A DNA stretch of 32,000 bases from NCBI RefSeq assembly GCF_002075285.3, contig NZ_CP021983.2, forward strand, positions 990,001 to 1,022,000. Reading direction: 5' to 3'. Every line of letters starts with the position of its first letter. Position 1 is the first letter of the stretch. This stretch comes from Halomicronema hongdechloris C2206. Its GTDB lineage: Bacteria > Cyanobacteriota > Cyanobacteriia > Phormidesmidales > Phormidesmidaceae. Shown piece after piece: positions 7,513-28,110 of this stretch. The notes beneath the pieces were generated by a model. It did not search any database. It saw only the letters and a list, made by a program, of their open reading frames with translations, and was not told the origin of the DNA. The translations under genes and the position numbers were made by a program.

Positions 7513-7629
7513 GGCTGAGCGGAGTCGAAGCCAGCGAGACTCAGGCCAACAAGATTCTACAAACCTGAATAAGTCCTTGCGGCTGAGACATATATGCTGG
7601 TGTCAACCCCAGGATCGGAGCCCAGCCCC

Positions 7630-10461
7630 ATGCGTTACCCAGCCCAGCTACTCGGCTTGCTTGCCCTCGCCGCCGTGATGGTGGCTACCCTCGAGAACCC
7701 CGGAACAGCCAAAGAGCATCGAGAACGGCTTCCGGTTCACATCGCCGACCGCTTGGCCCAAGGTGAAAGCGCTGAAGACCGCAAAGCTGAAGCCGATGCC
7801 CTGTTCGATGAAGCGTTTCAGCTATGGCGAGTCAGTGATTATCAGGCAGCCTGGGAGCGGCTACAACAAGCCCTGGCCCTCTACCAGGCCCCTGACGTGC
7901 GGACGGCCTTTCCGCAGGCCAGTCAGCGCGGCGAAGCGAATACGTTGACCGGACTGGGGGAAATCTCGCGCAGCTTTGGCCGATATCCTCAAGCCCTGGA
8001 CTATTACGAGGCTGCGCTAGCGATTCAGCAGACGATTCAGGATCGCTGGGGAGAGGGCGTCACCCTCAACAACATTGGGGCGGTGTACCACAATCTGGGC
8101 CAATATGAGCAGGCCCTGGGCTATTACCAGGACGCCCTCGCCATTCGCCAGGAGATTGGCGATCGTCAAGGGGTTGGCCAAACCCTCAACAACATTGGCT
8201 TGGTGTATGACAACCTGGGCCAATATGAGCAGGCCCTGGGCTACTACCAGGACGCCCTGGCCATCCTTCAGGAGATTGGCGATCGCAAGGGGGAAGGGGT
8301 CACCCTCAACAACATTGGGGCGGTGTATCGCAACCTGGGGCAATATGAGCAGGCCCTGGACTACTACCAGGAGGCCCTGGCCATCCGTCAGGAGATTGGC
8401 GATCGCGCTGGGGAAAGGGGTCACCCTCAACAAACATTGGGGCGATATATCGCAATCTGGGCCAGTATGAGCAGGCCCTGGACTATTACCAGGAGGCCCT
8501 GGCCATCCGCCAGGAGATCGGCGACCGCAGCGGCGAGGGCACCACCCGCAACAACATTGGGGCGGTGTATGACAATCTGGGCCAATATGAGTCGGCCCTG
8601 GACTATTACCAGGAGGCCCTGGCCATCCGCCAGGAGATCGGCGACGCCGGGGGAGGGGGTCACCCGCAACAACATTGGCTTGGTGTATGACAATCTGGGC
8701 CAGTATCAGCAGGCCCTGGGCACCTACCAGGAGGCCCTGGCGATTGCCCAGGAGATTGGCGATCGCAACGGCAGAGCCATCAGACTCAATAACCTCGGCT
8801 ATGTGCTGGAAGACCTAGAGCAGCCGGAGCTGGCCATCGTTTTCTTGAAGCAATCGGTAAACCAGTGGGAAGCGATGCGGGGGGACATTGGTGGGTTATC
8901 CGTTGAGGACCAACAAGCCTTTACCGACAGCATTGCCAGCAGCTATCGCAAACTGGCGGATATGCTGCTGCAGCAAGACCGCATCCTGGAGGCGCAGCGG
9001 GTGCTGGATTTGCTGAAGGTGCAGGAGCTGGATGAATATTTGCAGGGGGTGCGCAGCACCGCCCAAACTGAAAGCGGGGTGGATTTACTCGATCCGGAAC
9101 GCCAGATTCGTAACCGCACCATCGCCATCGGCTATGAACTGGCCCAGTTGCGAGATATGCCCTATGCAGAATTGTCAGAGGCCCAAAAGCAGCGGCTGGC
9201 GGAGCTGGATGCGGCCCAACAAGATGTCATTCAGGACTTTCGTGCCTTCATCGACAGTCCCGAGATCCAGGCCCTGGTGGCGCAGCTGCAGAGCGATGTG
9301 CAGGAGCAGGATGTGCTGGCGGAGCTGGATGAGTTCATCAACTTGCAGAACAACCTGCGGGCCATTGACCAGACTGCCGTGCTGATCTACCCGCTGATTT
9401 TAGAGGAGCGGCTGGAGCTGGTGCTGGTCACCCCCTTCAGTGAACCGGCTCGCTTCCCAGTGCCTGTGAGTAAAGCCGAGTTGAACGAGACAGTGCTGGC
9501 TTTTCGGCGAGCGCTGGATGACCCCAGCAGCGATCCGCGACCGTTGGCCCAGCAACTCTATGAATGGCTGATTGCCCCCATGGCCGAGGACTTAGAGGCC
9601 ATCGGCGCCGAGACGATGCTCTATGCCCCGGATGGGGTATTGCGCTACATTCCCCTGGCCGCCCTCCATGATGGTGAGCAATGGCTGGCAGAGCGCTTTG
9701 CCATTAACCACATCACTGCCGCCAGCCTGCAAGACTTCACCCTGCGGCCCGACCCGCAGCCCCGGATTCTGGCGGCGGCTTTCAGTGAGGGGTTCTATGA
9801 GGTGCAGGCCCGCGATCGCATCTTTCCCTTCGACGGTCTGCCCTTCGCCGGTCGCGAGGTGGCCACCCTGGCCGAGCGGTTTCCCGGCACCACCCAATTT
9901 ATCAACCAGGCCTTTAGCCGCAGCGCCCTCGAGCCAGCTATGGATAGCCATACCATTGTTCATCTGGCCACCCACGCCACCTTTGTCTCCGGCTCATCGC
10001 GGGACTCGTTTATTCTGTTTGGCAATGGCGATACCCTCAGCTTGCAGGAGATCAAGGCCGACTGGCAGGGACGATTTAACCAGGTGGATCTGATCGTGCT
10101 CAGCGCCTGTGAGACAGGGCTAGGCGGCCCCACCCTGGGCAATGGGGAAGAGATTCTCGGCTTCGGCTATCTGATGCAGGAGGCTGGAGCTGAAGCGGCC
10201 ATCGCCTCGCTGTGGCAGGTGAGTGATGGCGGTACCCAGGCGCTGATGGATGCCTTTTATTTGGCCTTGCAGAATGGCTACTCCAAGGCGGAGGCGCTAC
10301 AGCGAGCCCAGCAGGCATTAATCGCCGATGACATGAGTATTGTCGGTGGTGAGCGCGGCACCATCGAGGTCGTCAGCACCGTCACCGGCCAGCCCATTGG
10401 CGATAGCCTGGCCCATCCTTACTACTGGGCCCCGTTTATCCTCATCGGCAATGGCTTGTAA
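7630..10461 (+). CDS. TPR-repeat / CHAT-domain (caspase-like protease) protein with a hydrophobic N-terminal segment; two internal TPR units are out of frame
   Basis: There are eight 40-aa TPR units (GEGVTLNNIGAVYxNLGQYEQALxYYQxALAIRQEIGDR). The C-terminal CHAT domain has the His...Cys dyad (VHLATHATF ... LSACETGLGG ... YYWAPFILIGN). The ORF is open from 7594. The ATG at 7630 gives MRYPAQLLGLLALAAVMVATLE. The stretch 8414-8653 is frameshifted relative to the TPR frame. Confidence 0.85.
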   Translation: MRYPAQLLGLLALAAVMVATLENPGTAKEHRERLPVHIADRLAQGESAEDRKAEADALFDEAFQLWRVSDYQAAWERLQQALALYQAPDVRTAFPQASQRGEANTLTGLGEISRSFGRYPQALDYYEAALAIQQTIQDRWGEGVTLNNIGAVYHNLGQYEQALGYYQDALAIRQEIGDRQGVGQTLNNIGLVYDNLGQYEQALGYYQDALAILQEIGDRKGEGVTLNNIGAVYRNLGQYEQALDYYQEALAIRQEIGDRAGERGHPQQTLGRYIAIWASMSRPWTITRRPWPSARRSATAAARAPPATTLGRCMTIWANMSRPWTITRRPWPSARRSATPGEGVTRNNIGLVYDNLGQYQQALGTYQEALAIAQEIGDRNGRAIRLNNLGYVLEDLEQPELAIVFLKQSVNQWEAMRGDIGGLSVEDQQAFTDSIASSYRKLADMLLQQDRILEAQRVLDLLKVQELDEYLQGVRSTAQTESGVDLLDPERQIRNRTIAIGYELAQLRDMPYAELSEAQKQRLAELDAAQQDVIQDFRAFIDSPEIQALVAQLQSDVQEQDVLAELDEFINLQNNLRAIDQTAVLIYPLILEERLELVLVTPFSEPARFPVPVSKAELNETVLAFRRALDDPSSDPRPLAQQLYEWLIAPMAEDLEAIGAETMLYAPDGVLRYIPLAALHDGEQWLAERFAINHITAASLQDFTLRPDPQPRILAAAFSEGFYEVQARDRIFPFDGLPFAGREVATLAERFPGTTQFINQAFSRSALEPAMDSHTIVHLATHATFVSGSSRDSFILFGNGDTLSLQEIKADWQGRFNQVDLIVLSACETGLGGPTLGNGEEILGFGYLMQEAGAEAAIASLWQVSDGGTQALMDAFYLALQNGYSKAEALQRAQQALIADDMSIVGGERGTIEVVSTVTGQPIGDSLAHPYYWAPFILIGNGL
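7930..8892 (+). repeat. 120-bp tandem repeat array encoding the TPR units
   Basis: Units 2-7 are highly similar at the nucleotide level by eye, for example ggccaatatgagcaggccctgg(g/a)ctattaccagga recurs every 120 nt. Confidence 0.85.
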
Positions 10462-10718
10462 GGATAGCGTTGACCCGATCAGGATGTCAGTAGAGTTGGC
10501 GGGTCCTGCTCAGCCATAGAGAAGAACCACGAAAAAATCGTTGGGGACCGCATAAAACTCTATGGGTCCCGGCCAAAAATGGTGGCGTCCCAGACAAATG
10601 TCTATGGGGACCGCGTAGATTATGACCCCCCCTACGACTGGGCTCCTTCATCCTGATGGGTAGCGGGCTGTGCCCAGGTCTGCCCTTGCTACACTGGGGA
10701 TACTTGTGAGAACGGTTG

Positions 10719-11462
10719 ATGCCCATGGCTGTCTCGACCTCTGAAACTCAACACCCCCAATCAGCTCAGGTATCATCCGACGCTATTCCTTTCCCGCCCG
10801 GAGATCTCTACAGCGACGAGCCGCCCTTGGAAACTGACCTCCACCGTGACCAAATTGATTTGCTGATTCGGCTGCTGAAGTGGTTGTGGCGAGATCGACA
10901 AGACTTCTATGCGTCCGGTAATCTGACCATTTACTACAGTCCCAATCAGAGCAAATCCAGCGATTTTAGAGGCCCAGACTTTTTTGTCGTCTTAGACACC
11001 GAGCGCAAACCCCGCAAGAGTTGGGTGGTGTGGGAAGAAGATGGCAAGTATCCCCATGTGATTGTGGAGTTGCTGTCGGAGTCGACGGCCAATACTGACC
11101 GCGGCCTGAAAAAGCAGATCTACCAAGATATTTTTCGTACCCTCGATTATTTCTGGTTCGATCCCTACAGCTTGGAGTTTGAAGGCTTTCATCTGGTGGA
11201 TGGCACCTATCAGCCCATTGCCCCCACGGAACAGGGCTGGCGCTGGAGTCAGCAATTAGGGCTCTATCTGGGCATCCATCAAGGGCAGCTGCGGTTTTTC
11301 ACACCGGAGGGAGATCTGGTTGCTAGCCCTGAAGAGACTGCTGCATTGGAACGGCAGCGGGTCGAGACAGAACGACAACGTGCCGAAGCGGAACAGCAGC
11401 GCAATGAGAGACTCGCCGCTAAGCTACGAGAGTTGGGAGTTGACCCGGACGATATTCAATAA
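10719..11462 (+). CDS. Uma2 (DUF820) family putative endonuclease with a C-terminal coiled coil
   Basis: PD-(D/E)xK-type blocks PDFFVVLD ... VIVELLSESTANTDRGLKKQIYQ. The tail ERQRVETERQRAEAEQQRNERLAAKLRELG is common in cyanobacterial Uma2 proteins. Confidence 0.85.
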   Translation: MPMAVSTSETQHPQSAQVSSDAIPFPPGDLYSDEPPLETDLHRDQIDLLIRLLKWLWRDRQDFYASGNLTIYYSPNQSKSSDFRGPDFFVVLDTERKPRKSWVVWEEDGKYPHVIVELLSESTANTDRGLKKQIYQDIFRTLDYFWFDPYSLEFEGFHLVDGTYQPIAPTEQGWRWSQQLGLYLGIHQGQLRFFTPEGDLVASPEETAALERQRVETERQRAEAEQQRNERLAAKLRELGVDPDDIQ

Positions 11463-15870: not shown

Positions 15871-16048
15871 ATGACCGACGTTTTTATCTCATACTCCCGT
15901 CGAGATAAAGCCTTTGTGCAGGTGCTCAACGACGCCCTAGTCGAGAGGCAAGTATGACGCCTGGGTCGATTGGGAGAATATTCCCCTGACGGCGGATTGG
16001 TGGGCGGAAATTGAAGCGGGTATTGAGGGGGCGGATACGTTTATTTAG
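15871..16048 (+). pseudogene. Frameshifted and truncated TIR-domain gene fragment, a third copy of the TIR head
   Basis: atgaccgacgtttttatctcatactcccgtcgagataaagcctttgtgcaggtgctcaac... is homologous to the 5' ends of 19741 and 23864. One extra base in gtcgagaggcaagtatgac (vs gtcgagagcaaatacgat) creates a stop after 28 codons. Homology continues in the +1 frame (YDAWVDWENIPLTADWWAEIEAGIEGADTFI) and ends at about 16048. Confidence 0.8.
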
Positions 16049-16052
16049 CCAA

Positions 16053-16532
16053 CTACTTGAAACGATACCCCAGATCCTCAGGAAACCCCTCATCGAAAAC
16101 CTGCTCCCAAGAGTAGGGACAGTCCTCAGGAAAAGTATCGAGGGACAGTTCAGTTTCCAGAGCGGCCTCTTTGCGAGCGATTTTATATATCTTCTGCAAC
16201 CAGTCCTGAGTTTGGATCCGCTTCAAACTCGGAGTGTCTTCCAAATAGCTCTGACTGTTGATGCGCTCTCGTTGTATCGTTTTCACCCAACTCCGCGATC
16301 GCCGCTCGGGTTGATAGTGCCATTTCAGCAGGTGATGCAAGATTAACCGCACAGCACTCACCAGGCGATCGCGCTCTCGACGCCCCAAATCAATCACCTC
16401 TTCAATTAAATGCTCCAAATCCAGCTGGTCAAATTGGCCCCGACGCAGCAGATCAGCCATTAAATTTGACCAAAGGGCGATATCACGTTCGTAGAGAGTG
16501 GCTAACTCAGATTGAGTGGGATGGGTCACCAT
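16053..16532 (-). CDS. DUF29 family protein
   Basis: LYERDIALWSNLMADLLRRGQFDQLDLEHLIEEVIDLGRRERDRLVSAVRLILHHLLKWHYQPERRSRSW matches the DUF29 pattern (YExDxxxW...LDxxNLxEEIExLG...LxxLLxHLLKW). Confidence 0.85.
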   Translation of the reverse strand: MVTHPTQSELATLYERDIALWSNLMADLLRRGQFDQLDLEHLIEEVIDLGRRERDRLVSAVRLILHHLLKWHYQPERRSRSWVKTIQRERINSQSYLEDTPSLKRIQTQDWLQKIYKIARKEAALETELSLDTFPEDCPYSWEQVFDEGFPEDLGYRFK

Positions 16533-16706
16533 AGCACTGTGACAGCGTGGATAATTAGTCCCATTGTGGCACGGTTAAATCGGGTACGGGATTTTCCGCT
16601 TGGGTGGCGAACCCAGTTGAGTGATAGAAGCTCAAAGCCTGCCAAGCGTTCTCGAGGTCAGGACAACAGAGCCGAATTGTGCCGTTTGCATCCCCTGAAT
16701 GTAACG

Positions 16707-18926
16707 ATGCCTCAGGGGTTGCTATATGTTAGAAGCGTTCGATTTAGCCCAACAGGGAACTATCTTGTCTCCGGTTCTGCTGACTATTCAATTCGCCTCT
16801 GGAATTTAGAAAACCAAACATCGACAACGATTGATGACGATGACTTAAACGGATGGATTGAATCGGTTGACTTTCGCCCGGATGGTCAACAATTTGCCGC
16901 TGGGTCTTCTGGAGGCATTGCCAAAATTTGGGATTTAGACGGAAATGTTGTACAAACTTTGCCAGGTCATGTCGGAACCGTCAATAGGGCTCGCTTTAGT
17001 CCGGATGGACATACTCTAGCTGCCGTCGCAGGTGATGGTCAGGTTCGAGTGTGGTCATTAATGAACAAAGCAATAGCTCAGTTAGACACCCACACAGACG
17101 CTCTTTGGAACGTGGATGTTAGTTCTGACGGTACTCAGATTGCGACGGCTTCTGTGGATGGTACAACCCGCATCTGGGATCGGTCAGGCGCAGAAATTCG
17201 GCGTCTAGAATTGCCTACTAACCAAGTCTTCAATGATGTTGTCTATAGTCCTGGCGGCAACACTATTGCGACATCAACGATAGATGGCGACATTCAGCTT
17301 TGGGATGCAGAAGGCAATCTGGTCAACCGCTTTGCAATGCATGGACAAAGAGTTCTTGGGCTTGACCTAAGCCCGGACGGGAAATATGGTCTCAGCGGTT
17401 CTGATGACACCACTGCTAAACTCTGGGACTTAGAGGGCAATGTTCAGGCGGTTGTTAACCATGATGAATGGATTCGAGATGTAGCGTTCAGTCCCGACGG
17501 CCAAACCTTTGCCACAACTTCAGAAGACACACTCGCTCGCCTTTGGGATTTAGACGGTAACTTACTTGCTGAGTTTGAAGGTCACGCCGATGGGGTAAAT
17601 GGCATTAGCTTCAGCCCGGATGGCACTATGCTAGTCACCGCTTCTGATGACAGCACAGTGAAACTCTGGGATGTACAGGGAAATCTAATTCATTCCTTTC
17701 AAAAACACCATGGTCGGGTTTGGACAGTGGCGTTTAGCCCGGATGGTGACTCCATTGCCACAGGAACTTCAGAGGGCTATGCTCGCCTGTGGGATTTGGA
17801 CGGTAACCTAATTGGCGAATTTAAAGGGCATGAGGAAGTGGTCACTGGCGTTGCTTTCAGTCCTGATGGTCAATATTTGATTTCAGCATCTGGTGACAGC
17901 ACCGCAAAGGTTTGGCGAATCGCCCGCACGCTTGATGATTTGCTAGCTCAAGGGTGTGACTGGTTAGCCGATTATTTGACGCTTCATCCCGATGCGTTAA
18001 TGGAGCTAGAAAACTGCCAACGCCCAGACCTATTGCCAAAGGCTGCTTCCTACTTGGTGAAAACAGCGATGCAGACTGCACGGACAGGTAATGTGCAACT
18101 TGCCCAGCAACAATTGGCAACAGCACTCACGTGGAATCCCGATGTCGATCTTGATCCAGAGACACCTGAGCATGAGCAAAATGCAACTCAGATGGCCCGA
18201 AAATTTTCAGCAGCTTATAGTCTCACAGAAGGACAGCGACTCGCACATCAGCTCAAACTTGAAGATGCCACTCAAGCCTATGAAAGAGCTTTAGAGCTTG
18301 ACGCTGAGGTTGACCTTGATCCACAAACGGATGCGGTTGAGCAAGATGCGGATCTGATCGCCCGTCGATACGTAGCGCTCAGTCTACAGCAGCGAGGGCA
18401 ACTGCAGGCTCAACAGCTCAAGCTCAAAGCCGCCGTTCAGACCTTGGAAGAGGCACTAGACCTCGATCCCACGATTGACCTCAATCCAGACACAGAAGAA
18501 ATCGACCAAGATGCCAAAGCAGTAGCTAATCGGTTTTCAGCTCCTGGACATCTGGCAGCAGGACAGCAACAGGTAAAAAATGGTGATGTAGAGGCAGCCG
18601 CCCAAGCCTATCAAACGGCTCAGGACTTAGATCCTGACCTTGAAGTTGATCGGAGAGTTTGGGACACACTCTGTTGGTTTGGGAGCGTACAGGGTCAAGC
18701 GACTACAGTTCGTTTTGCCTGTGAGAACAAAGCCTATTTTGGCGGGGTTTCCACATTAGATAGTCGCGGCATCGTGCTGGCTCTAGATGGCGATCTTGAA
18801 GGGTCCATTGAAAGCTTCCAAGCCTACATTGACGTTCCAGGGCGTAGTCAAGACCGCGTCATCCAAGGTCAAGCCTGGATCAATGCTCTCAAAACAGGGG
18901 ACAATCCTTTTCTCACGGATGATTAA
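16707..18926 (+). CDS. WD40-repeat protein (about 10 units) with C-terminal acidic repeats of about 58 aa; no TIR domain or TM helix
   Basis: Repeats of the type GHxxxVxxVxFSPDGxxxxxxSxDxTxKLWDLxGN. The first Met at 16707 sits inside the first WD unit. The ORF is open from 16512 but overlaps DUF29 and has no domain-like sequence there, so the start is uncertain. Confidence 0.85.
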   Translation: MPQGLLYVRSVRFSPTGNYLVSGSADYSIRLWNLENQTSTTIDDDDLNGWIESVDFRPDGQQFAAGSSGGIAKIWDLDGNVVQTLPGHVGTVNRARFSPDGHTLAAVAGDGQVRVWSLMNKAIAQLDTHTDALWNVDVSSDGTQIATASVDGTTRIWDRSGAEIRRLELPTNQVFNDVVYSPGGNTIATSTIDGDIQLWDAEGNLVNRFAMHGQRVLGLDLSPDGKYGLSGSDDTTAKLWDLEGNVQAVVNHDEWIRDVAFSPDGQTFATTSEDTLARLWDLDGNLLAEFEGHADGVNGISFSPDGTMLVTASDDSTVKLWDVQGNLIHSFQKHHGRVWTVAFSPDGDSIATGTSEGYARLWDLDGNLIGEFKGHEEVVTGVAFSPDGQYLISASGDSTAKVWRIARTLDDLLAQGCDWLADYLTLHPDALMELENCQRPDLLPKAASYLVKTAMQTARTGNVQLAQQQLATALTWNPDVDLDPETPEHEQNATQMARKFSAAYSLTEGQRLAHQLKLEDATQAYERALELDAEVDLDPQTDAVEQDADLIARRYVALSLQQRGQLQAQQLKLKAAVQTLEEALDLDPTIDLNPDTEEIDQDAKAVANRFSAPGHLAAGQQQVKNGDVEAAAQAYQTAQDLDPDLEVDRRVWDTLCWFGSVQGQATTVRFACENKAYFGGVSTLDSRGIVLALDGDLEGSIESFQAYIDVPGRSQDRVIQGQAWINALKTGDNPFLTDD

Positions 18927-19040: not shown

Positions 19041-19631
19041 GTGACCTCGCTAACCTTGCCCCTCAAAATCGATTTGCGGCACGTTCATCTCAGCGATGAA
19101 CAGTTTTACCAACTCTGTATCAATAATCCAGACTTGACCGTTGAGCGCGATGCCCAAGGAGCCTTAATTCTCATGTCACCAGTAGGGGGGGATGGTGGAA
19201 ACCAAGAGCTTGAACTCGGCACCGACCTTACTATTTGGAATCGCCGCACCAAACTGGGCAAAGTCTTCAGCTCGTCAACACTGTTTAAGTTACCTGGAGG
19301 AGGAGACCGCTCTCCTGATGCCGCTTGGGTAGAACTGTCTCGCTGGCAGGCATTGACGCCAGAACAACGCCGGAAGTTTCCGCCCATTGCCCCAGACTTT
19401 GTGATTGAGTTGCGTTCTCCCACCGATTCTCTCTCCATGCTTCAGGAGAAGATGCAGGAGTACATGGACAGTGGTGTACGTCTCGGTTGGCTCATCAACC
19501 CTCAAGACCAGCAGGTTGAGATTTATCGACAGGGTCAGGAGAAAGTGGCAGAGTCGCTGCCTACTGAACTTTCAGGTGAATCTGTGCTGCCAGGGTTCGT
19601 GTTGTCACTTAATCGGTTTGAGGATGAATAA
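19041..19631 (+). CDS. Uma2 (DUF820) family putative endonuclease
   Basis: GTG start. APDFVIELRSPTDSLSMLQEKMQEYMDSGVRLGWLINPQDQQVEIYR is the typical Uma2 PD-(D/E)xK core and C-terminal block. Confidence 0.85.
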   Translation: MTSLTLPLKIDLRHVHLSDEQFYQLCINNPDLTVERDAQGALILMSPVGGDGGNQELELGTDLTIWNRRTKLGKVFSSSTLFKLPGGGDRSPDAAWVELSRWQALTPEQRRKFPPIAPDFVIELRSPTDSLSMLQEKMQEYMDSGVRLGWLINPQDQQVEIYRQGQEKVAESLPTELSGESVLPGFVLSLNRFEDE

Positions 19632-19740: not shown

Positions 19741-22725
19741 ATGACCGACGTTTTCATCTCCTACTCCCGTCGAGACAAAGCCTTTGTGCAGGTGCTGAAC
19801 CAGGCCCTGGTCGAGAGCAAATACGATGCCTGGGTGGATTGGGAGAGCATTCCCCTAACGGCGGACTGGTGGGAGGAGATTAAAGCCGGCATTGAAGCTG
19901 CCGACACCTTCATCTTCGTGATGACGCCGGACTCCATCGCCTCAACAGTCTGTCGCCAAGAAGTTGACCATGCCGTTGAGAACAACAAGCGACTGGTCCC
20001 AGTGGTGCGGCGAGAAGGGTTTGATATGTCCCTAGTGCATCCGGCGTTAGGAAAACATAACTGGCTGTTCTTCAGGGAAGCGGATGACTTTGACACGGCC
20101 TTTCAGTCGTTGGTTGCGACCCTCAACACCGACCTGGCCCATGTGAAGACCCACACGCGGCTGCTGGTGAAAGCTCAAGAGTGGGACAAAAAACAGCGCC
20201 GCGATGACTTGCTGCTGCGGGGCGATGAGTTTGTGATTGCCGAAAACTGGCTGGTGGAAGCGTTTCAGCAGCAAAAGGAACCGCTGCCCACGCCGCTGCA
20301 TAAGGACTACATTCAGGCCGGACGGGAAGCTCAGGAACGAGAGGTCAAGCGAGAGAAGCGCCGGATTTTGCTGCTCAGGTCACTCCTCGCGGTGATGAGT
20401 CTGGCGTTTGTCGCGGCTTCGGGGGCGGGCATCTATGCCTATCAGCTTTGGCGAAATGGACAAATTGAACAAATCGAGTCGCTGGCGAAACAGTCCAATG
20501 CTGAATTTTTAGCGGGACAAAATACCGATGCGCTGATTACGGCGCTGGAAGCGGGGCATCGATGGGAGAAGTATCCGGAGAGCGATCGCATCTTCGTCCA
20601 CCAAGTACTTGCACAAGCTGTCAGCGGCATTCGCGAGATCAAGACCCTAGGCGACAATTATGGTGATATTCCGAAGGTTGCGGTTAGCTCCGATGGTAAT
20701 GTCATGGCCTCTGGCAGCAACGCCGGAGAAATCAAACTCTGGAGCCAGGACGGGAAACTTCTACATGCCATCTCTGCTCATGAAGATGGTATTCGAGGGT
20801 TGGTCTTTAGCCCCGATGGCGAGATTTTAGCCTCAGCCAGCCTAGACCAGACGGCAAAGCTCTGGAACCGCCAGGGTGAACTGCTGCATACCCTCGCAGA
20901 CCATGAGGCTCAGGTTTGGGATGTGGGTTTCAGCCCCGACGGTCAAACTCTGGTGACCTCTAGTAGTGATGCCACGCTCAAACTCTGGAACCGCAACGGT
21001 GAGCTGTTGCGGACCTTGACCGATCATGAAGACTCAGTTTGGAATCTGACCTTCAGTACAGATGGCCAGATCATTGGATCCCACAGCGATGACCAGACCG
21101 TGAAGCTTTGGAACTGGCAAGGAGAACTCCTCCAAACCCTCTCTGGACACACTGCTGATCCCTGGAGCAAAGCCTTTAGCCCCGATGGAGAACTCATCGC
21201 GACTGGTGGAGCCGATCAAACCGTTCGACTCTGGAACCTCAATGGTGAGCTCTTACACACCCTGACCGGCCATGAAGACACTGTACGCCAAGTACTTTTC
21301 AGTCCAGATGGGCAGTTGCTCGCCTCAGCGAGTTTCGATAACACGATTAAACTCTGGAGCCGAGAAGGGCGGATCATTAAAACCCTCACAGGCCATACTC
21401 AAACTGTGAACTGGATGCAGTTTAGTCAGGATGGCCAAACCCTCGTCTCATCGAGTAGCGACGGCACTCTCAAACAGTGGGGGCGAGATGGAACTTTATT
21501 GCAAACATTGACGGGACATACGAGTTGGGTCGGGGATGTTGTTTGGAGTCCAGATGGCCAAACGCTAATATCTGGCAGCGGCGACCGAACCGTCAAGCTT
21601 TGGCAATTGGCAGGCAACACCTCAACTACACTCAATGGCCACAATTCATGGGTCAGCGCCGCTCAATATACTCCTGATGGTCAGATGCTGATCACTGGAG
21701 AAGGGTATGGCCCACTGAAATTTTGGACTGCTGACGGCGAGCTGATTCGCACCGTTGACGGCCATGGGTATGATGATGGGCTCGGTGACTTCACCGTCAG
21801 CCCAGATGGTCAATTCATTGCCTCCATTAGCGATAGCGGGCCAGTTGCCATCCTCTGGAATGCTCAAGGAGAAATATTACACACCCTCGAAGTCGAAGAC
21901 GGATCTAGACCTCATGTGAGGTTTAGTCCTGATGGAAAAATCCTGCTTACTGCCCGTGGTGGTGTTATCCGCCTTTGGAATTTGGACGGAGAACTCTTGC
22001 ACACGCTGACTAGCGAGACAGAGTCCGTTCGAGATATTGCCTTTGGTCCTGATAGTCAAACTCTGGTATCGGCTAACAGTGACGGCCCCCTCAAAATGTG
22101 GAGTGTCGAGGGTGAATTGTTGAACAGTTTGGGTGATCGAGAAGAACCTTATTATGCAGTAACTTTTAGCCCCGATGGACAGTATCTGGTGGCGGGCAAT
22201 GAGGACAACACAGTGCAACTTTGGACTGCCAACGGTGAGTTGCTACACACGCTCGCAGGTCATACCGATGCGATAGTAGACGTTCTCTTTAGTTCCGATG
22301 GCCAAACGATCATCTCTGCCAGCGAAGATGGCACCGTCAAGTTTTGGAATCTAGAAGGTGAGTTGGTAAATTCGGCGAAGGGCGAGGAAGAAGGAATTTA
22401 TGAAGGAATTTGGGATCTAGCTTTGAGCCCTGACGGTGAGACGTTGGCGACCGCTGGAGAAGACTATACCGTTAAGCTTTGGTCAATGAAGGGTGAGCTT
22501 TTACAGACCTTAGTCGGTCACCAAAACTGGGTAATAGATCTAGAATTCAGTCCCGACGGCAAAACCCTAGCCTCCAGCAGTGCCGACGAAACCGCTATTT
22601 TGTGGGACTTGGAAGCGCTGGAGTTTGATGCCCTGATGCAGCGAGGCTGCGAGTGGTGGCGCGAGTACACCGAGTATCAAGACACCCCACCCGACTCGCA
22701 ACGCGAGATTTGTGACGGCATCTGA
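19741..22725 (+). CDS. TIR domain / single TM helix / 16 WD40-repeat protein (paralog B)
   Basis: MTDVFISYSRRDKAFV...ADTFIFVMTPDSIASTVCRQEVDHAV is TIR_2-like. The hydrophobic segment ILLLRSLLAVMSLAFVAASGAGIYAY (about 20365-20442) is preceded by KREKRR. It carries 16 WD40 units of about 41 aa and has no Walker A motif. Confidence 0.9.
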   Translation: MTDVFISYSRRDKAFVQVLNQALVESKYDAWVDWESIPLTADWWEEIKAGIEAADTFIFVMTPDSIASTVCRQEVDHAVENNKRLVPVVRREGFDMSLVHPALGKHNWLFFREADDFDTAFQSLVATLNTDLAHVKTHTRLLVKAQEWDKKQRRDDLLLRGDEFVIAENWLVEAFQQQKEPLPTPLHKDYIQAGREAQEREVKREKRRILLLRSLLAVMSLAFVAASGAGIYAYQLWRNGQIEQIESLAKQSNAEFLAGQNTDALITALEAGHRWEKYPESDRIFVHQVLAQAVSGIREIKTLGDNYGDIPKVAVSSDGNVMASGSNAGEIKLWSQDGKLLHAISAHEDGIRGLVFSPDGEILASASLDQTAKLWNRQGELLHTLADHEAQVWDVGFSPDGQTLVTSSSDATLKLWNRNGELLRTLTDHEDSVWNLTFSTDGQIIGSHSDDQTVKLWNWQGELLQTLSGHTADPWSKAFSPDGELIATGGADQTVRLWNLNGELLHTLTGHEDTVRQVLFSPDGQLLASASFDNTIKLWSREGRIIKTLTGHTQTVNWMQFSQDGQTLVSSSSDGTLKQWGRDGTLLQTLTGHTSWVGDVVWSPDGQTLISGSGDRTVKLWQLAGNTSTTLNGHNSWVSAAQYTPDGQMLITGEGYGPLKFWTADGELIRTVDGHGYDDGLGDFTVSPDGQFIASISDSGPVAILWNAQGEILHTLEVEDGSRPHVRFSPDGKILLTARGGVIRLWNLDGELLHTLTSETESVRDIAFGPDSQTLVSANSDGPLKMWSVEGELLNSLGDREEPYYAVTFSPDGQYLVAGNEDNTVQLWTANGELLHTLAGHTDAIVDVLFSSDGQTIISASEDGTVKFWNLEGELVNSAKGEEEGIYEGIWDLALSPDGETLATAGEDYTVKLWSMKGELLQTLVGHQNWVIDLEFSPDGKTLASSSADETAILWDLEALEFDALMQRGCEWWREYTEYQDTPPDSQREICDGI

Positions 22726-22734
22726 GCCAGATGG

Positions 22735-22870
22735 CTACCCAATGTGATTGCCTTCGTAGGCATCAAAAGCCTCATCAACACTCATCACAGCCATATTGTC
22801 ACTAAGGGCTTGGGCAAGGATGGGGCGATCGCACGTTATCGTTTGAGTATGTAGAGCACCGGATGACCAG
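22735..22870 (-). pseudogene. Possible C-terminal remnant of a PIN-domain (VapC-like) toxin
   Basis: The minus-strand reading is ...GALHTQTITCDRPILAQALSDNMAVMSVDEAFDAYEGNHIG*. It resembles the PIN C-terminal block (DP)xDRxIxAQAxxxxxxLxSxDxxFxxY. There is no start codon or N-terminal part. Confidence 0.3.
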
Positions 22871-22890
22871 CGAAACTCAGGAGCAAAAGT

Positions 22891-23116
22891 ATGATTGCTC
22901 AGCCAGAGACCTCAAAAACCTATTCCCTGGATGACTACCTAGAGTTTGAAACAGCATACTCATCACGTAGAGCATTACGCCAAACGCGACGAGAAACGGT
23001 GGATTTTTCAGGAATATGATGAGGCTAACGAGCAGCTTGAACTCGTAACGATTCCTTGGACAATTTCCTTTCAGGAGCTCTACAGCAAGGTCACTTTTAT
23101 CTCTGAAGACCTTTAA
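22891..23116 (+). pseudogene. Uma2 family remnant with an internal deletion and a frameshift
   Basis: AGGAG lies 8 nt upstream of the ATG. The N-terminus MIAQPETSKTYSLDDYLEFETAYS is Uma2-like. After a frame change the reading is EHYAKRDEKRWIFQEYDEANEQLELVTIPWTISFQELYSKVTF*, which is a Uma2 C-terminus. The nuclease core is missing. Confidence 0.45.
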
Positions 23117-23154
23117 TCCAAGGATCATTGATCCAGCTTCATGAATCAACCTCA

Positions 23155-23718
23155 TCACGCAAAAACGCTAGCGATAGGTAATCGGAAGTTAGGCAGCAGG
23201 GGAGAGGTCAGGCTGTCATCCACCATCAGCGTGCTCACCCTCTGTAGTTGAGCAGCCTCACGGCGATACACTTCCAGGGTTTGGAGTTGCCAATTCACAA
23301 CCCAGTATTCTCGAACGCCATGGATGGAATAGAGCTTAAGCTTAAATGCTTTGTCTCGCTGCTCGTTTTGCTCTCCGGGTGACAAGATTTCCACGATTAA
23401 TTCTGGTGCAACCGTGAGGTGACCCGCTTCGTCAATCCCGTTTGCAAGACGGTCTTGGCTAATCCACACGACATCGGGAATCACCGCATCGGTAGGAGAG
23501 AAGACCACCCCTGGTGTTTGAAATGCGCTGCCCAAGCCCGTTTCTTCTGACCAAAGCTCTAGGCGAACATGAATTTTACCCGCAGCGCTCTGATGGCGAA
23601 TGTGGGGAGCGCGGGTCATAAACAGGTCTCCATCAATGATTTCATAGCGCTTCCAGCCGCCGTCATCGGGCATAAACTGAATGTCGTCAACGGTCCAGCG
23701 GAGAGGTTGAGTGACCAT
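23155..23718 (-). CDS. Uma2 (DUF820) family putative endonuclease
   Basis: RYEIIDGDLFMTRAPHIRHQ...IPDVVWIS...APELIVEILSPGEQNEQRDKAFKLKLYSIHGVREYWVVN. The ORF is open from 23799, and the ATG at 23718 (MVTQPLRWTVDD) is preferred. Confidence 0.85.
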   Translation of the reverse strand: MVTQPLRWTVDDIQFMPDDGGWKRYEIIDGDLFMTRAPHIRHQSAAGKIHVRLELWSEETGLGSAFQTPGVVFSPTDAVIPDVVWISQDRLANGIDEAGHLTVAPELIVEILSPGEQNEQRDKAFKLKLYSIHGVREYWVVNWQLQTLEVYRREAAQLQRVSTLMVDDSLTSPLLPNFRLPIASVFA

Positions 23719-23863
23719 CGGCTTCACAACTGAGCAATGATTACACTTTAGCTGAGACGGATTAGCGAGTATTGGCCGCGTGGCATAGGCAGACCGCATC
23801 TCCCGGAATCATCAATTATTGTTATGAAGAGCTCCCGTAGCCGCTCCGCATTCATCATCGATC

Positions 23864-26686
23864 ATGACTGACGTTTTCATTTCTTATTCCCGTCGGGACA
23901 AAGCCTTTGTGCAGGTGCTGAATCAGGCCCTGGTCGAGAGCAAATACGATGCCTGGATAGATTGGGAAGATATTCCCCTGACGGCGGACTGGTGGGAAGA
24001 GATCAAAGCCGGCATTGAGGCAGCCGACACCTTTATTTTTGTCATCAGCCCCGACTCCATCGCCTCCAAGGTCTGCAGGCAGGAGATCGACCATGCCGTG
24101 GCCAACAACAAGCGGCTGATGCCCATCGTGCGGCGGGAAGGCTTTGATATGGCCCTGGTGCATCCAGCCCTGGGCAAGGCCAACTGGCTATTTTTCAAGG
24201 AAGAGGACGATTTTAACGTTGCCTTTCAGTCCCTGGTGAGCGCTCTGGATACGGATCTGACCCATGTGAAAGAACACACCCGTATCTTGGTGAAAGCCCT
24301 GGAATGGGAGAAAAAGCGACGGCGGGAAGATCTGCTGCTGCGTGGGCAGGAACTAGAAGAGGTGATCCAGTGGCTGACGCAAAATGCCGAGAAAGAGCCT
24401 CGCTCTACTCAACTGCAACGGGACTATATCAATGCCAGTCGGTTGCAGGCAGCGGCCCAACAGCAGGCAAAACTTGCCCATGAGGCTATGGTGCGTCGGC
24501 GGATTACGCGGGCGCTCGTGGCCGCCGTCGGGGGCTTAGTGGTTGCAGTAGGCCTCGGTCTGACGGCGTTCCAGCAATATCGACGGGCCGAAGCTCAGCG
24601 GCAGGAGGCGATCCTCGGTGAAATTCAGGCCCAGGTGACGTCGGCCGATGCCTTGCTGGATACTCAGCAGCCTCTGGATGCCCTGCTGGAAACTCTGAGC
24701 GCCGCTGGTAATCTCCAATTGCTGCAGCAGCTTGACCCGCTCCTGGCTGCCAAACTCAAGGCGGTGCTGCATCGGGCTATTTTTAGCCTGCGAGAACGCA
24801 ACCGTCTGGTGGGTCACCGCAACTACTGGGCGACGGCGGTGAGTTTCCATCCGGATGGGGAGCGGCTTGTCTCCAGTGGAATGGATGGCACGGTGCAACT
24901 GTGGAGTCTCGAGGGAGAGCGGTTGCAGACGTTTTCCGGCCACCAAGCCGGTGTCTATGACTTGAGTATCAGCCCTGACGGCCAGTCCTTGGCCTCCGCC
25001 AGCTATGACGGCACCGTGAAGCTCTGGCGTCTGGATGGTCAGCTGCTGCACACCTGGGACGGGCATCAGCAACGGGTCACCAGTGTGCGATTTAGTCCTG
25101 ATGGTAACCGGTTAGCCACAACCAGCGACGATCGCACCATTCAGCTGATCGATCTAGACAGTCGACAAGTCCAGAGCCTTGAGGGCCATGGCAGAGGCGT
25201 TCATGCCATTGACTGGAGCCCGGACGGTAACCAGCTGGTCTCGATTGATTACTCGGGGTATATCAGGCTTTGGGGCAAAGACGGCAGGGAGATGGCTGTG
25301 GCCTCGACGCCGGTGGACAGTAACACCTTTCTGCCCCGGGTAGGATTCAGCCGGGATGGCCAGCGTATCTTGGCCACGGGAGGTGCGAATGCCAAGGTGT
25401 CGCTATGGGATTTGGCCCTAACCCGGCAATCGCAGGACTTTGCAGGAAAAGGCTATCTGGTGTCCAGCTTTGCTGTCAGCCCGGATGGCCAGGTAGTTGC
25501 GATCGCAGGTGAAGCCAACAGCCTCACCGGCGGCTCCAGCATTGTGCTGCAGGATCCAGCCGGGAATCCCTTAGGGGAACTGCGGGGCCATGTCTCCCGC
25601 ATCAACGACGTGAGCTTTAGTCCGGATGGCAGCCTGTTGGCCTCGGCTGCCTTCGACGGCACCGTCAGGCTGTGGGATCTGACGCCAGATACCCCGCATC
25701 GCTTGATCGGCCATGAGGGCGGCGTCAATAGCATCGTCTACTCCCCGGATGGCCACTACTTAGCCTCCACCGGCGAGGATGGCACCGCCCGGGTGTGGAC
25801 CCCTGATGGCGAGGAATGGCAGCGGTTTGCCGCCTCGGAGCACGGCCCAGTCAGTGAGGTGAGCTTCGGCTCAGACAGCCGCTGGCTGGTCCTGGGTTAC
25901 GACGATGGCACCGTGACGCTGAATGATCTGACCACGGACATGACTCGCGAGCTGGCGCTACATCAGGACGCTGTGCGTAGCCTGGACGTCAGCCCCGGTC
26001 ATAATCTGTTGGCCTCCTCCAGCGCCGACGGCACCGTTAAGGTGACTAATCTGGACGGGGAGGCGATGGCTACCTATGAGCAACCCCAGGCAGATATTTA
26101 TCGAGTCCGGTTTAGCCCCGACGGCGAGAGGGTCGCCTTCACCTACAACACCGAGGCAGCCAGCCATGTGTTGCTGTGGCAGTGGCACACGAATGACACC
26201 CAGTCGTTCCAGGTGGGGGGCTTTGGCGGCGGCAGTTTCAGAATTACCGACATGGCCTTCAGCCCCGACGGCAAGACATTGGGAACCACCAACTGGGAAG
26301 GGATCGTCCATCTCTGGGACGTTCAGACCGGAGAGCAGATCTCTTTCTTCGCCGGCGACGATGGCCCCGTCAGGACGCTTAGTTTTTCCCCGGATGGCAC
26401 CCTGCTGGCCGCCTCTAGTGGAGGTTTCGTGCGTCTCTGGACCCTCACCGGAGAGCAAGTCCAGCGATTCTATGACACCCAACGGGTTCACGATATGACG
26501 TTTAGCCCCGATGGCCACACCCTGGCTGCAGCCAATGCCGACGGTACGATCACGCTGTTTAACCTGAACTTAGAGGCGCTGACTGCCCAGGGCTGTAGCC
26601 TGCTGGCTACCTATCTGCAAAGCCATAGGGCTGTTGCTGAAACCCTGACGATTTGCCAAGGTTATAGCGCTGGCCAGTCAGCTTAG
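23864..26686 (+). CDS. TIR domain / single TM helix / 14 WD40-repeat protein (paralog C)
   Basis: The TIR head is the same as in paralog B (about 135 of the first 160 aa identical by hand alignment). The hydrophobic segment ITRALVAAVGGLVVAVGLGLTAF (about 24503-24571) is preceded by RRR. It carries 14 WD40 units and has no Walker A motif. Confidence 0.9.
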   Translation: MTDVFISYSRRDKAFVQVLNQALVESKYDAWIDWEDIPLTADWWEEIKAGIEAADTFIFVISPDSIASKVCRQEIDHAVANNKRLMPIVRREGFDMALVHPALGKANWLFFKEEDDFNVAFQSLVSALDTDLTHVKEHTRILVKALEWEKKRRREDLLLRGQELEEVIQWLTQNAEKEPRSTQLQRDYINASRLQAAAQQQAKLAHEAMVRRRITRALVAAVGGLVVAVGLGLTAFQQYRRAEAQRQEAILGEIQAQVTSADALLDTQQPLDALLETLSAAGNLQLLQQLDPLLAAKLKAVLHRAIFSLRERNRLVGHRNYWATAVSFHPDGERLVSSGMDGTVQLWSLEGERLQTFSGHQAGVYDLSISPDGQSLASASYDGTVKLWRLDGQLLHTWDGHQQRVTSVRFSPDGNRLATTSDDRTIQLIDLDSRQVQSLEGHGRGVHAIDWSPDGNQLVSIDYSGYIRLWGKDGREMAVASTPVDSNTFLPRVGFSRDGQRILATGGANAKVSLWDLALTRQSQDFAGKGYLVSSFAVSPDGQVVAIAGEANSLTGGSSIVLQDPAGNPLGELRGHVSRINDVSFSPDGSLLASAAFDGTVRLWDLTPDTPHRLIGHEGGVNSIVYSPDGHYLASTGEDGTARVWTPDGEEWQRFAASEHGPVSEVSFGSDSRWLVLGYDDGTVTLNDLTTDMTRELALHQDAVRSLDVSPGHNLLASSSADGTVKVTNLDGEAMATYEQPQADIYRVRFSPDGERVAFTYNTEAASHVLLWQWHTNDTQSFQVGGFGGGSFRITDMAFSPDGKTLGTTNWEGIVHLWDVQTGEQISFFAGDDGPVRTLSFSPDGTLLAASSGGFVRLWTLTGEQVQRFYDTQRVHDMTFSPDGHTLAAANADGTITLFNLNLEALTAQGCSLLATYLQSHRAVAETLTICQGYSAGQSA

Positions 26687-26882: not shown

Positions 26883-27722
26883 CTAAAGCGGCCGCCAGTC
26901 TCCTGCCAGGATGAAGGCGGCCCAGTAGTAGGGCCGACTATACCGCCCACCTTCACGAATCATCTCTAACTGCACTGCTCGCAGGGCTTCGCTACGGCCC
27001 ATACCCGCCATCAGCTTTTCGTAGTACCGCGCCATCAAGCTCTGGGTACCAAAATCACTTACCTGCCAGAGACTCATGAGCTGAGACTCGGCCCCGGCGA
27101 TGGCAAAGGCCCGCCGCAGACCATAGACCCCTTCGCCATTGGCGATGTCTCCCAAGCCGGTATCGCAGGCGGAGAGCACCACCAGCTGAGTGCCAAACAG
27201 GTTGAGGTTGGCGGCTTCCAAGGCGGTGAAGACCCCGTCTTCGTCACCGCTGCGGCGGGTGTTGAATCCGGCCAGGGCCAGGCCCGAGCGCAGCAGGGGA
27301 TTTTCCACCGGGGCCGTTAAGCGGGGCAGCGCCCGCAACCCATCAGCCGCGGCCAGGCTCAGGCCACGTCTCTCCTCGGCCACCGAAATAGGGTGATCTT
27401 CCAAGAAGAAGCCGTGGGTGGCGATGTGGAGAATGCGCGGCGCCTGCACCTGTTTCAAGGCATTTTCGGTGGCGGTGTCTTCCATCAGGACGGTGGCGTT
27501 GGGGAGCAGGGATTGGATGGCTTTGGCTTCGGCGGCAGTGCCGGGTAACGGTTCGACCTGAAGTTGGCTGAGATCGGTGGAGCGGCGGTTCGTCTCGACT
27601 CCGCTCGACGACCGCTCGCCCCGGCTCTCTAGCTCCTCCGGAGCAGAGTCGTTGGCGAAGCTACTCAGGGAGCTTCCAGTTACCGAGTCGAGCCCCGAGC
27701 GGAGTCGAGGGGCGGCTTGCTC
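26883..27722 (-). pseudogene. N-terminally truncated CHAT-domain gene remnant
   Basis: The C-terminal half of a CHAT domain has an intact dyad (ILHIATHGFF ... VVLSACDTGLG ... YYWAAFILAGDW). The frame stays open upstream of the first Met (27485) through EPLPGTAAEAKAIQSLLPNATVL, up to a TAA at 27723-27725. There is no N-terminal CHAT half, no TPR region and no plausible start. Confidence 0.7.
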
Positions 27723-27850
27723 TTAACTTATTCAGCCTAAGGTTGAGGAAAGTGACCTTGAGGCATTGCAGGGGCTTCACCACTGTGGAGTCAGGACAGC
27801 CCCTGGACCATGCGGGAATGACGGATACGAGGTCTTCGTAGGCCGATGTC
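27723..27850. repeat. Inverted partial copy of the GTCATTCC...CTGAATAAGT MITE-like family
   Basis: The reverse complement reads ...ccgtcattcccgcatggtccagg...cctcaaccttaggctgaataagtta. Compare 7050-7160: ccgtcattccgggcaagg...ctatcaacctgaataagtcc. Confidence 0.35.
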
Positions 27851-28110
27851 AGCAACACCTCTACATCAATCAAAAACCGCCCGCAGTAGGAGGCCACGGG
27901 CGATTGAGTCAAGAGAGATCACACAAACTAGGAGTACCTTACGCAGCGGGGCGGCGGGGGCGCTTGCGCTCAGACTTTTTCTTGAAGCCGATGGCTTGGG
28001 CTTCGTCACTGTCGGAGCCAAACTGTCCGCGCACGCCTTCCTTCATGGCCAGGAGCAGACGGATTTGCTGCCAACACAACCGCATCGGGAATGCCTTTTG
28101 AGGAGAGGGG

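Follow-up and report, generated by a model that had tools for sequence, protein, structure and literature searches.

To our knowledge, the characterised bacterial systems based on TIR domains (Thoeris, the CBASS and Pycsar effectors, SPARTA, Cat1 and the TIR-STAND proteins) all sense intracellular events. In animals, the TIR domains of the Toll-like receptors (TLRs) are viewed as scaffolds, with adaptors carrying the signal onward. In bacteria, a death-type cytoplasmic effector is joined via transmembrane (TM) helices to an outside sensor in the cyanobacterial metacaspase-TM-CHASE2 proteins (PMC3501461) and in the EACC2-caspase-CHASE2 proteins (PMC8195603), which are the nearest published architectural parallels to the two proteins considered here. 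These proteins, p1 (994 amino acids, aa) and p2 (940 aa), are encoded in a stretch of 32,000 nucleotides (nt) of Halomicronema hongdechloris C2206 (contig NZ_CP021983.2, positions 990,001 to 1,022,000; hereafter the window, to which all positions refer). On balance, and with reservations set out below, we favour the view that p1 and p2 are single-pass receptors with the N terminus inside and the C terminus outside, in which a ligand of WD40 propellers would cluster the TIR heads and elicit NAD+ cleavage, immunity or conflict being the likeliest role.

The gene encoding p1 lies at 19741-22725 and that encoding p2 at 23864-26686, both on the + strand. The two ORFs, which an initial annotation made from the sequence alone had sized at 994 and 940 aa, begin with MTDVFISYSRRDKAFVQ, an opening correctly recognised in that annotation as TIR_2-type. 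Each ORF starts at the first available start codon downstream of an in-frame stop, so no signal peptide can be hidden ahead of the TIR domain. Both proteins have the same layout: a TIR domain, a linker, one TM helix, a WD40 region (16 blades in p1, 14 in p2) and a C-terminal cap with two cysteines. Pfam profile searches, which the initial annotation had proposed, yielded TIR_2 (PF13676) matches with E values of 5.8e-27 (p1) and 4.2e-27 (p2) and, beyond the TIR domain, very strong WD40 (E values of 1.1e-141 and 7.7e-107) and beta-propeller matches, together with weaker TIR, ThsB_TIR and CAP12-PCTIR_TIR matches. Neither protein contains a P-loop NTPase, as judged from the GxxxxGK[ST] (Walker A) motif and from NACHT and NB-ARC Pfam matches, and the TIR domain is only about 75 residues away from the TM helix, too short a distance to accommodate one. 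A STAND (NACHT or NB-ARC) immune protein is ruled out by this absence of a P-loop module, as had been concluded previously.

The TIR domain of p1, predicted to be cytoplasmic, extends from 19750 to 20115 (aa 4-125) and that of p2 from 23873 to 24235 (aa 4-124), with TIR_2 scores of 95.0 and 95.5 bits, respectively (gathering score, 28 bits). In the AlphaFold2 model of aa 1-300 of p1, based on 63 homologues (mean pLDDT 93.7), aa 1-129 adopt a TIR fold, aa 132-177 form a small helical module and aa 185-257 a single long helix. A Foldseek comparison of the TIR model with the PDB gave 88 matches at E<=0.001. Every one of the 50 listed is a TIR-domain structure; those at the top are SPARTA TIR-APAZ, Hydra TRR-2, SARM1 and AbTir, with root-mean-square deviations (rmsd) of 2.2-2.6 Å, and TLR1, TLR6, TLR10 and TLR15 are also among them. 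The assignment to TIR_2 is therefore upheld by both score and fold. A profile search with the TIR region matched Cat1 (2e-11), SPARTA, AbTir, MyD88, TLRs and SARM1.

The translations of both heads contain SxxCRQE(V/I), with the codon for Glu74 at exactly the positions annotated (19960-19962 in p1 and 24083-24085 in p2). This putative catalytic residue aligns with the alphaC Glu of AbTir (WTNYELD), Cat1 (CWDEL) and the SPARTA TIR domain (LKEIA), which is the catalytic residue of those proteins, and it is invariant in the homologues (63/63 in one set, 41/41 in another). The two TIR heads display 86% identity, with a dN/dS of 0.07 at a dS of 1.26, indicating that both are under strong purifying constraint; these values identify them as old paralogues and rule out recent gene conversion between them. 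From the sequence and the model, we infer that the TIR domains of p1 and p2 are of the NAD+-cleaving type.

The linker of p1 (20116-20355, aa 126-205) is a helical juxtamembrane module with the motif HTRLLxxAxEW...LLRGxxLxxAxxW...PxPT, in which H138, T139 and W148 are invariant and LLRG is nearly invariant in the homologue alignment. Its helices are modelled at aa 132-150 and 161-177, and it matched no Pfam family. The LLRG-type motif is also found ahead of a TM helix and a WD40 region in some proteins with no TIR domain. Each protein then has exactly one hydrophobic segment, predicted to form a TM helix, at the positions given in the initial annotation (20365-20442, aa 209-234, in p1; 24503-24571, aa 214-236, in p2). 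Scored as the Kyte-Doolittle 19-residue maximum (KD19; classical threshold 1.6), hydrophobicity peaks at 2.14 in p1 (aa 207-234, core 209-234) and 2.31 in p2 (aa 213-237, core 214-236), the next-best values outside the helix being 1.08 and 1.23, respectively. The segment of p1 sits within the continuous modelled helix at aa 185-257, small-xxx-small motifs can be read in both TM helices, and nearly all full-length homologues have a hydrophobic segment at about aa 200-260.

The basic clusters described on the TIR side, KREKRR in p1 and RRR in p2, are both present N-terminal of the helix. In a positive-inside test on 54 WD40-bearing homologues, the mean number of K+R was 4.6 in the 15 residues before the helix and 2.4 in the 15 residues after it (Wilcoxon p = 7e-10), with mean net charges of +2.9 and +0.3. 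Relatives join the TIR-linker-TM module to other domains: CHASE2 and then three TM helices (L046 and L065, in our numbering of loci), an ARC6-like intermembrane-space (IMS) domain (L027 and L041), or a weak Cache-like segment bounded at its end by another TM helix (L070). In the Chloroflexota relatives, an SH3_3 (bacterial SH3) domain comes after the WD40 part without another TM helix intervening, and in an Agrobacterium plasmid relative, which has one TM helix in the entire protein, this position is occupied by a peptidase M23 domain. CHASE2, ARC6-like IMS, SH3_3 and peptidase M23 are established extracytoplasmic domains, and, since no TM helix separates SH3_3 and M23 from the WD40 part, the latter is placed on the same side as the cell-wall domains. 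NAD+ is cytoplasmic, and a folded domain of 200 residues with no signal peptide stays in the cytoplasm. In 35 of the 54 homologues, the part beyond the TM helix (about 700 residues) contains exactly two Cys; the number is even in 87%. Cys depletion was rejected as a stand-alone marker of topology, because it was significant but modest relative to controls, and was kept as support only. Ser/Thr kinase-TM-WD40 proteins are among the nearest relatives of the WD40 region of p1, as are WD40 proteins whose N-terminal part contains a hydrophobic segment; p1 and p2 have the chassis of the receptor kinases, with one TM helix, a head N-terminal to it and WD40 C-terminal to it, and a DeepTMHMM survey found the WD40 domains of single-pass Ser/Thr kinases to be mostly periplasmic (PMC11032199). 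The placement of the TIR domain in the cytoplasm and of the propellers outside it, already proposed in the initial annotation, is supported by the charge bias over 54 homologues, the fusions, the two-Cys pattern and the kinase parallels, and on this sequence evidence a type II (N-in/C-out) topology is probable, and clearly preferred, for p1 and p2. The periplasm is a likelier location for the propellers than the thylakoid lumen.

In p1, a helical stalk beyond the membrane (20443-20652, aa 235-304; model helices up to aa 257 and at 261-276 and 283-299) leads to the WD40 region (20653-22614, aa 305-958), which is predicted to be periplasmic, as is that of p2 (24803-26578, aa 314-905). Motif anchors gave the same 16 and 14 WD40 units as had been counted previously, and the AlphaFold2 model of full-length p1 (mean pLDDT 86.9) agrees with the former number, its 63 beta-strands within aa 312-956 fitting 16 four-stranded blades. 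Each WD40 region probably forms two propellers. These regions contain no Cys, the sole two Cys of each ectodomain being those of the C-terminal cap (22615-22722 in p1, with C970 and C991 and model helices at 962-979 and 985-991; 26579-26683 in p2, with C911 and C931). The two-Cys cap motif recurs after the WD40 part in most homologues.

This architecture is not particular to the window: p1 and p2 are members of a very large family. When species were scanned with one genome each, at least 527 stretches encoding a relative were identified, and 76 loci, from cyanobacteria and Chloroflexota (Anaerolineae), were kept for analysis. The nearest relatives among the 76 loci (76-89% identity) are from marine metagenome-assembled genomes (MAGs), designated 'Cyanobacteria bacterium P01_*', and from Leptothoe spongobia; three of the five plasmid matches are from Bacteroidota and an Agrobacterium. 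An exhaustive HMMER search with a 300-residue query against 1.84 billion cluster representatives (50% identity) returned at least 3,451 at E<=1e-30, with up to eight stretches of the query matched per protein. Among the top 146 representatives (P0240-P0385), a hydrophobic helix was found in 131 at the same threshold, the TIR start motif occurred two to five times in 114, and a Walker-A-like GxxxxGK[ST] string was present in only six. The survey of TIR-TM-WD40 proteins with no NTPase suggested by the initial annotation thus showed them to be common. Most of those at genome loci have about 900-1,000 aa, leaving room for two propellers. The domain combination is already visible in public annotation, under names that are only generic in the records sampled ('TIR domain-containing protein', 'WD40 repeat protein'). 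A full-text literature search found no description of TIR-TM-WD40 or TIR-TM-CHASE2 proteins, which is not proof of absence elsewhere, and no experimental study of the TIR-TM-WD40 family; TIR is not mentioned in a systematic survey of WD40 proteins in prokaryotes.

Many relatives have at least two TIR-linker units ahead of the single TM helix, with LLRG recurring every ~200 aa, as in WP_015136140.1 of [Leptolyngbya] sp. PCC 7376 (1,808 aa), and a Chondrinema plasmid protein (L078:3699-7385) has three TIR_2 domains. Such poly-TIR heads on a membrane receptor may be relevant to the control of TIR self-association. The Agrobacterium relative with the M23 domain (WP_174012738.1; L077:3956-6889), of the form TIR-LLxG linker-TM-WD40-peptidase M23, is encoded on the conjugative plasmid pAtCG920 of Agrobacterium tumefaciens, downstream of IS66-family and IS701-family transposase genes, and is annotated only as 'peptidoglycan DD-metalloendopeptidase family protein'.

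Members of the family tend to be arranged in tandem; in the nearest relatives, the genes occur as full-length tandem copies, head-to-tail and tens of bases apart (three in L001, five in L002 and three to four in L003). Paralogues within arrays of this type are 85-97% identical in the TIR domain and 34-69% identical in the WD40 part; for p1 and p2, the corresponding values are 86% and 33%, with 53% in the linker and 26% in the membrane region. The WD40 repeat units have a mean identity of 36% within p1 and 25% within p2, and Tandem Repeats Finder detected no repeats, ruling out rapidly homogenised repeats like those of the fungal HET-E/NWD proteins. In the closest orthologue of p1 (L007:8001-10973; 89% identity, MAG P01_C01_bin.120), the frame stops after 30 codons and later resumes, so that this copy is either a pseudogene or affected by an assembly error.

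According to the mechanism that we propose, a ligand would bind the periplasmic WD40 propellers and alter how the membrane helices pair or cluster, and this rearrangement would bring the TIR heads into self-association. TIR NADases need self-association to form their active sites, and the presence of several TIR-linker units per chain in relatives fits a mechanism based on TIR-TIR contacts. The associated TIR domains might then deplete NAD+ or convert it to ADP-ribose-derived signals, with growth arrest, cell death or a downstream signal as the outcome. Tandem paralogues with a near-constant TIR head and strongly diverged ectodomains would constitute a repertoire of specificities. The weakest step concerns the role, for which immunity or conflict (the sensing of phage, competitors or non-kin at the envelope) is plausible and the likeliest candidate, in view of the paralogue arrays with diversified sensors, the decayed copies and the plasmid-borne members. 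The abortive-infection, conflict or kin-recognition functions suggested in the initial annotation would draw only on these arrays and their diversified ectodomains. A more specific proposal, that the germline-encoded tandem arrays specify surface receptors with a TLR-like logic, in which diversified WD40 ectodomains detect phage particles, competitor factors or non-kin cells at the envelope, ahead of any entry into the cytoplasm, and fire the TIR NADase directly, with neither an NTPase nor a partner, is put forward only tentatively. Such an outside-in branch of bacterial TIR immunity may be tied to the filamentous, multicellular habit of many carriers.

By analogy, p1 and p2 resemble a single-pass receptor kinase in which the kinase has been swapped for a TIR domain. 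The Ser/Thr kinase-TM-WD40/TPR receptors of Planctomycetota (PMC11032199) and cyanobacteria (e.g. P0135) share with them an N-terminal cytoplasmic enzyme head, one TM helix and WD40 repeats on the far side, but their output is a kinase, their WD40 part (about 290 aa) is shorter than the ectodomains of the TIR-TM-WD40 proteins, and a motif search did not find LLRG in them. The metacaspase and EACC2-caspase proteins mentioned above combine a caspase-like effector with the small-molecule-binding CHASE2, whereas p1 and p2 combine TIR with WD40; the existence of TIR-TM-CHASE2 relatives of p1 is a further likeness. The TIR-STAND-WD40/TPR conflict proteins (PMC7159879, PMC8195603) likewise have an N-terminal TIR domain, a C-terminal repeat sensor and an expansion of paralogues, but in p1 and p2 a TM helix replaces the NTPase switch and the predicted position of the sensor is extracytoplasmic. 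The NADase TIR effectors (SPARTA TIR-APAZ, AbTir, Cat1, SARM1 and ThsB) have the same fold (rmsd of 2.2-2.6 Å), the same alphaC Glu and probably the same dependence on self-association. They are soluble and are triggered by cytoplasmic cues (guide/target nucleic acid, cyclic nucleotides, the NMN/NAD ratio) or by partner proteins, whereas the regulator of p1 and p2 would be a fused ectodomain across the membrane, with no conserved partner gene.

The comparison with TLRs made in the initial annotation holds in part. The logic of an outside repeat sensor, a single TM helix and an inside TIR domain is common to both, as is the TIR fold, but the orientation and domain order are inverted in p1 and p2 (N-terminal TIR, type II, no signal peptide), the ectodomain consists of WD40 rather than LRR, and the TIR domain keeps the NADase-type Glu. 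With a TIR domain from residue 4, no upstream start codon and a WD40 ectodomain, p1 and p2 are not true TLRs; the two are analogous, with no sign of common descent beyond the TIR domain. Known defence systems were also rejected, the only matches in PADLOC and NCBIfam scans (ThsB, Aga TIR, SAVED-TIR and retron-TIR) being weak, confined to the TIR domain and far below the cut-offs. For Thoeris, the ThsB matches were restricted to the TIR domain (NCBIfam, 27 bits versus a cut-off of 220), no neighbour was conserved in the 76 loci, and in the window p1 and p2 have Uma2, DUF29 and the remnant of a CHAT gene as neighbours rather than ThsA. For a CBASS or Pycsar effector, the SAVED_TIR (PADLOC) and CAP12-PCTIR_TIR (Pfam) matches were similarly weak and TIR-confined, with no conserved neighbour, and no cyclase was found among the window ORFs scanned. 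As the partners are missing, p1 and p2 are not components of Thoeris, CBASS or Pycsar.

The window holds three copies of the family, one of which is decayed. The TIR remnant of this third paralogue (15871-16045, + strand) spans TIR aa 1-58 and is disrupted by a frameshift following codon 25 and by a premature stop; it is 96% and 85% identical to the N-terminus of p1 in two frames (tblastn). The C-terminal remainder (16512-18926, + strand) has no TIR domain or TM helix and contains a WD40 part with a Pfam match, a two-Cys cap (LLAQGCDWLADYL...C in translation) and a TPR-like tail, a WD40-cap-TPR layout also present in intact relatives of 1,200-1,300 aa (L009, L025 and L014). A DUF29 gene (16053-16532, - strand) lies between the two remnants. 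Directly upstream of the ATG of the third copy, CAGCCCCACCATGACCGAC is a near match to the bases ahead of p1. Third-position GC of the ectodomain regions is 0.42 in the third copy (16707-18923), 0.53 in p1 (20671-22722) and 0.70 in p2 (24824-26683); it is 0.66-0.69 in both TIR heads and 0.60-0.71 in the other genes measured. This contrast might reflect different origins of the sensors, or recombination joining sensors to a common head.

Three genes of the Uma2 family (putative restriction-endonuclease-like; 10716-11462, +; 19041-19631, +; 23155-23799, -) are found within 13 kb, two of them flanking p1, and the last matches the PADLOC candidate system PDC-S03 (E 2e-30) and has a 4-nt overlap with a 93-aa ORF (22877-23158, -) with no family match. 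A truncated gene for a CHAT (caspase-like) protease (26883-27485, -, plus 27486-27900) retains the catalytic His (HIATHG) and Cys (SACDTG) motifs; upstream, the N-terminal part of the domain can be followed only in a different frame that contains stops, making a pseudogene probable. The TPR-CHAT gene at 7594-10461 is intact, and the gene content of the window also includes ndhG-like, NAD kinase, glycogen phosphorylase and GGDEF-EAL genes, which mark it as chromosomal DNA of a cyanobacterium. No Rfam family or tRNA was detected in the window, and its promoter- and terminator-like sites were not above those of shuffled sequence. When all ORFs of the 76 loci and the window were clustered, only the family itself was shared, the next most frequent neighbour clusters being ABC-type ATPase-like (by sequence; 9 loci) and Uma2 (5 loci); this lack of a conserved neighbour indicates a stand-alone gene.

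Several observations weigh against a receptor with an NADase output and a role in immunity. The 76 loci contain no conserved partner that could read a TIR-made signal, PADLOC and NCBIfam gave no full-length defence-system match for p1 or p2, and tblastn against 50,697 phage records produced zero matches, a result that also rules out a phage origin. The putative NADase activity is deduced from one residue and from fold similarity, and scaffold TIRs (MyD88 and TLRs) are also among the profile matches. The WD40 repeats are not near-identical, so the evidence of diversifying selection is indirect. With regard to topology, p2 taken alone has a weak charge bias (4 versus 3 K+R), and the Cys signal is modest, close WD40 relatives having 0.67 Cys/100 aa without an upstream hydrophobic segment and 0.35 with one (p = 0.007). 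The same topology could serve a non-immune sensor of the envelope or of development (peptidoglycan, septal junctions or filament neighbours), with the TIR domain tuning physiology as an enzyme or a scaffold. The scaffold TIRs and the lack of a defence-system model matched over the full length are consistent with such a sensor, as are the SH3_3, peptidase M23 and ARC6-like division-protein domains in the ectodomains of relatives. The kept loci, moreover, come mainly from filamentous cyanobacterial genera, and from Anaerolineae. TM-WD40 receptor kinases are, furthermore, ordinary signal transducers (PMC11032199). We nevertheless consider this reading rather unlikely, because the invariant Glu at the catalytic position and the closeness to NADase TIRs suggest an enzyme, because tandem arrays, diversified ectodomains and pseudogenised and plasmid-borne copies are typical of conflict genes, and because nuclease-like Uma2 genes and the remnant of a CHAT protease share the island.

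Another alternative is that the helix does not cross the membrane, or is a mere tether, and that the WD40 part is a cytoplasmic sensor, Apaf-1-like minus the NTPase. Multicellular bacteria are well known to have TIR-STAND-WD40 proteins with cytoplasmic WD40 sensors (PMC7159879), and the weak charge bias of p2 and the low confidence of the full-length p1 model at aa 216-225 point in the same direction. Hydrophobicity is, however, well over 1.6 in p1, p2 and the family, and a single span forces its flanks to opposite sides of the membrane. The folded TIR domain of 200 aa, with no signal peptide, is not exportable, and NAD+ is cytoplasmic. Together with the fusion of the module to CHASE2, ARC6-IMS, SH3_3 and M23 in relatives and the even, two-Cys pattern of the ectodomains, these features make a cytoplasmic WD40 sensor improbable. 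The sequence itself does not discriminate between the plasma and thylakoid membranes, and the two cyanobacterial membrane systems have equal in/out polarity, so the proteins could be thylakoid receptors with propellers in the lumen responding to a lumenal cue; the homologues in non-photosynthetic Chloroflexota (Anaerolineae), Bacteroidota and Agrobacterium and the peptidoglycan-related domains in relatives render this, too, quite improbable. Finally, the clearly degraded third paralogue in the window, the stop after 30 codons in the closest orthologue (L007) and the truncation of the nearby CHAT gene raise the question of whether p1 and p2 are themselves decaying, non-functional copies. Their frames are intact across nearly 1,000 codons, the dN/dS of the TIR heads is 0.07 and every invariant family residue is kept, making decay highly improbable.

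The family is modular, with WD40, CHASE2, ARC6-IMS or WD40+M23/SH3 as sensors and 1-8 TIR units in tandem, and, as a single-gene system, it should be easy to test in heterologous hosts. Even if its role proved to be developmental or one of envelope surveillance, it would still bring a new class of output to the transmembrane receptors of bacteria. If the receptor interpretation proposed here for p1 and p2 is true, envelope or extracellular recognition would be linked straight to NAD+-based signalling or suicide in bacteria, and these proteins would provide bacteria with a concrete counterpart to the arrangement of TLRs and with outside-in TIR signalling.

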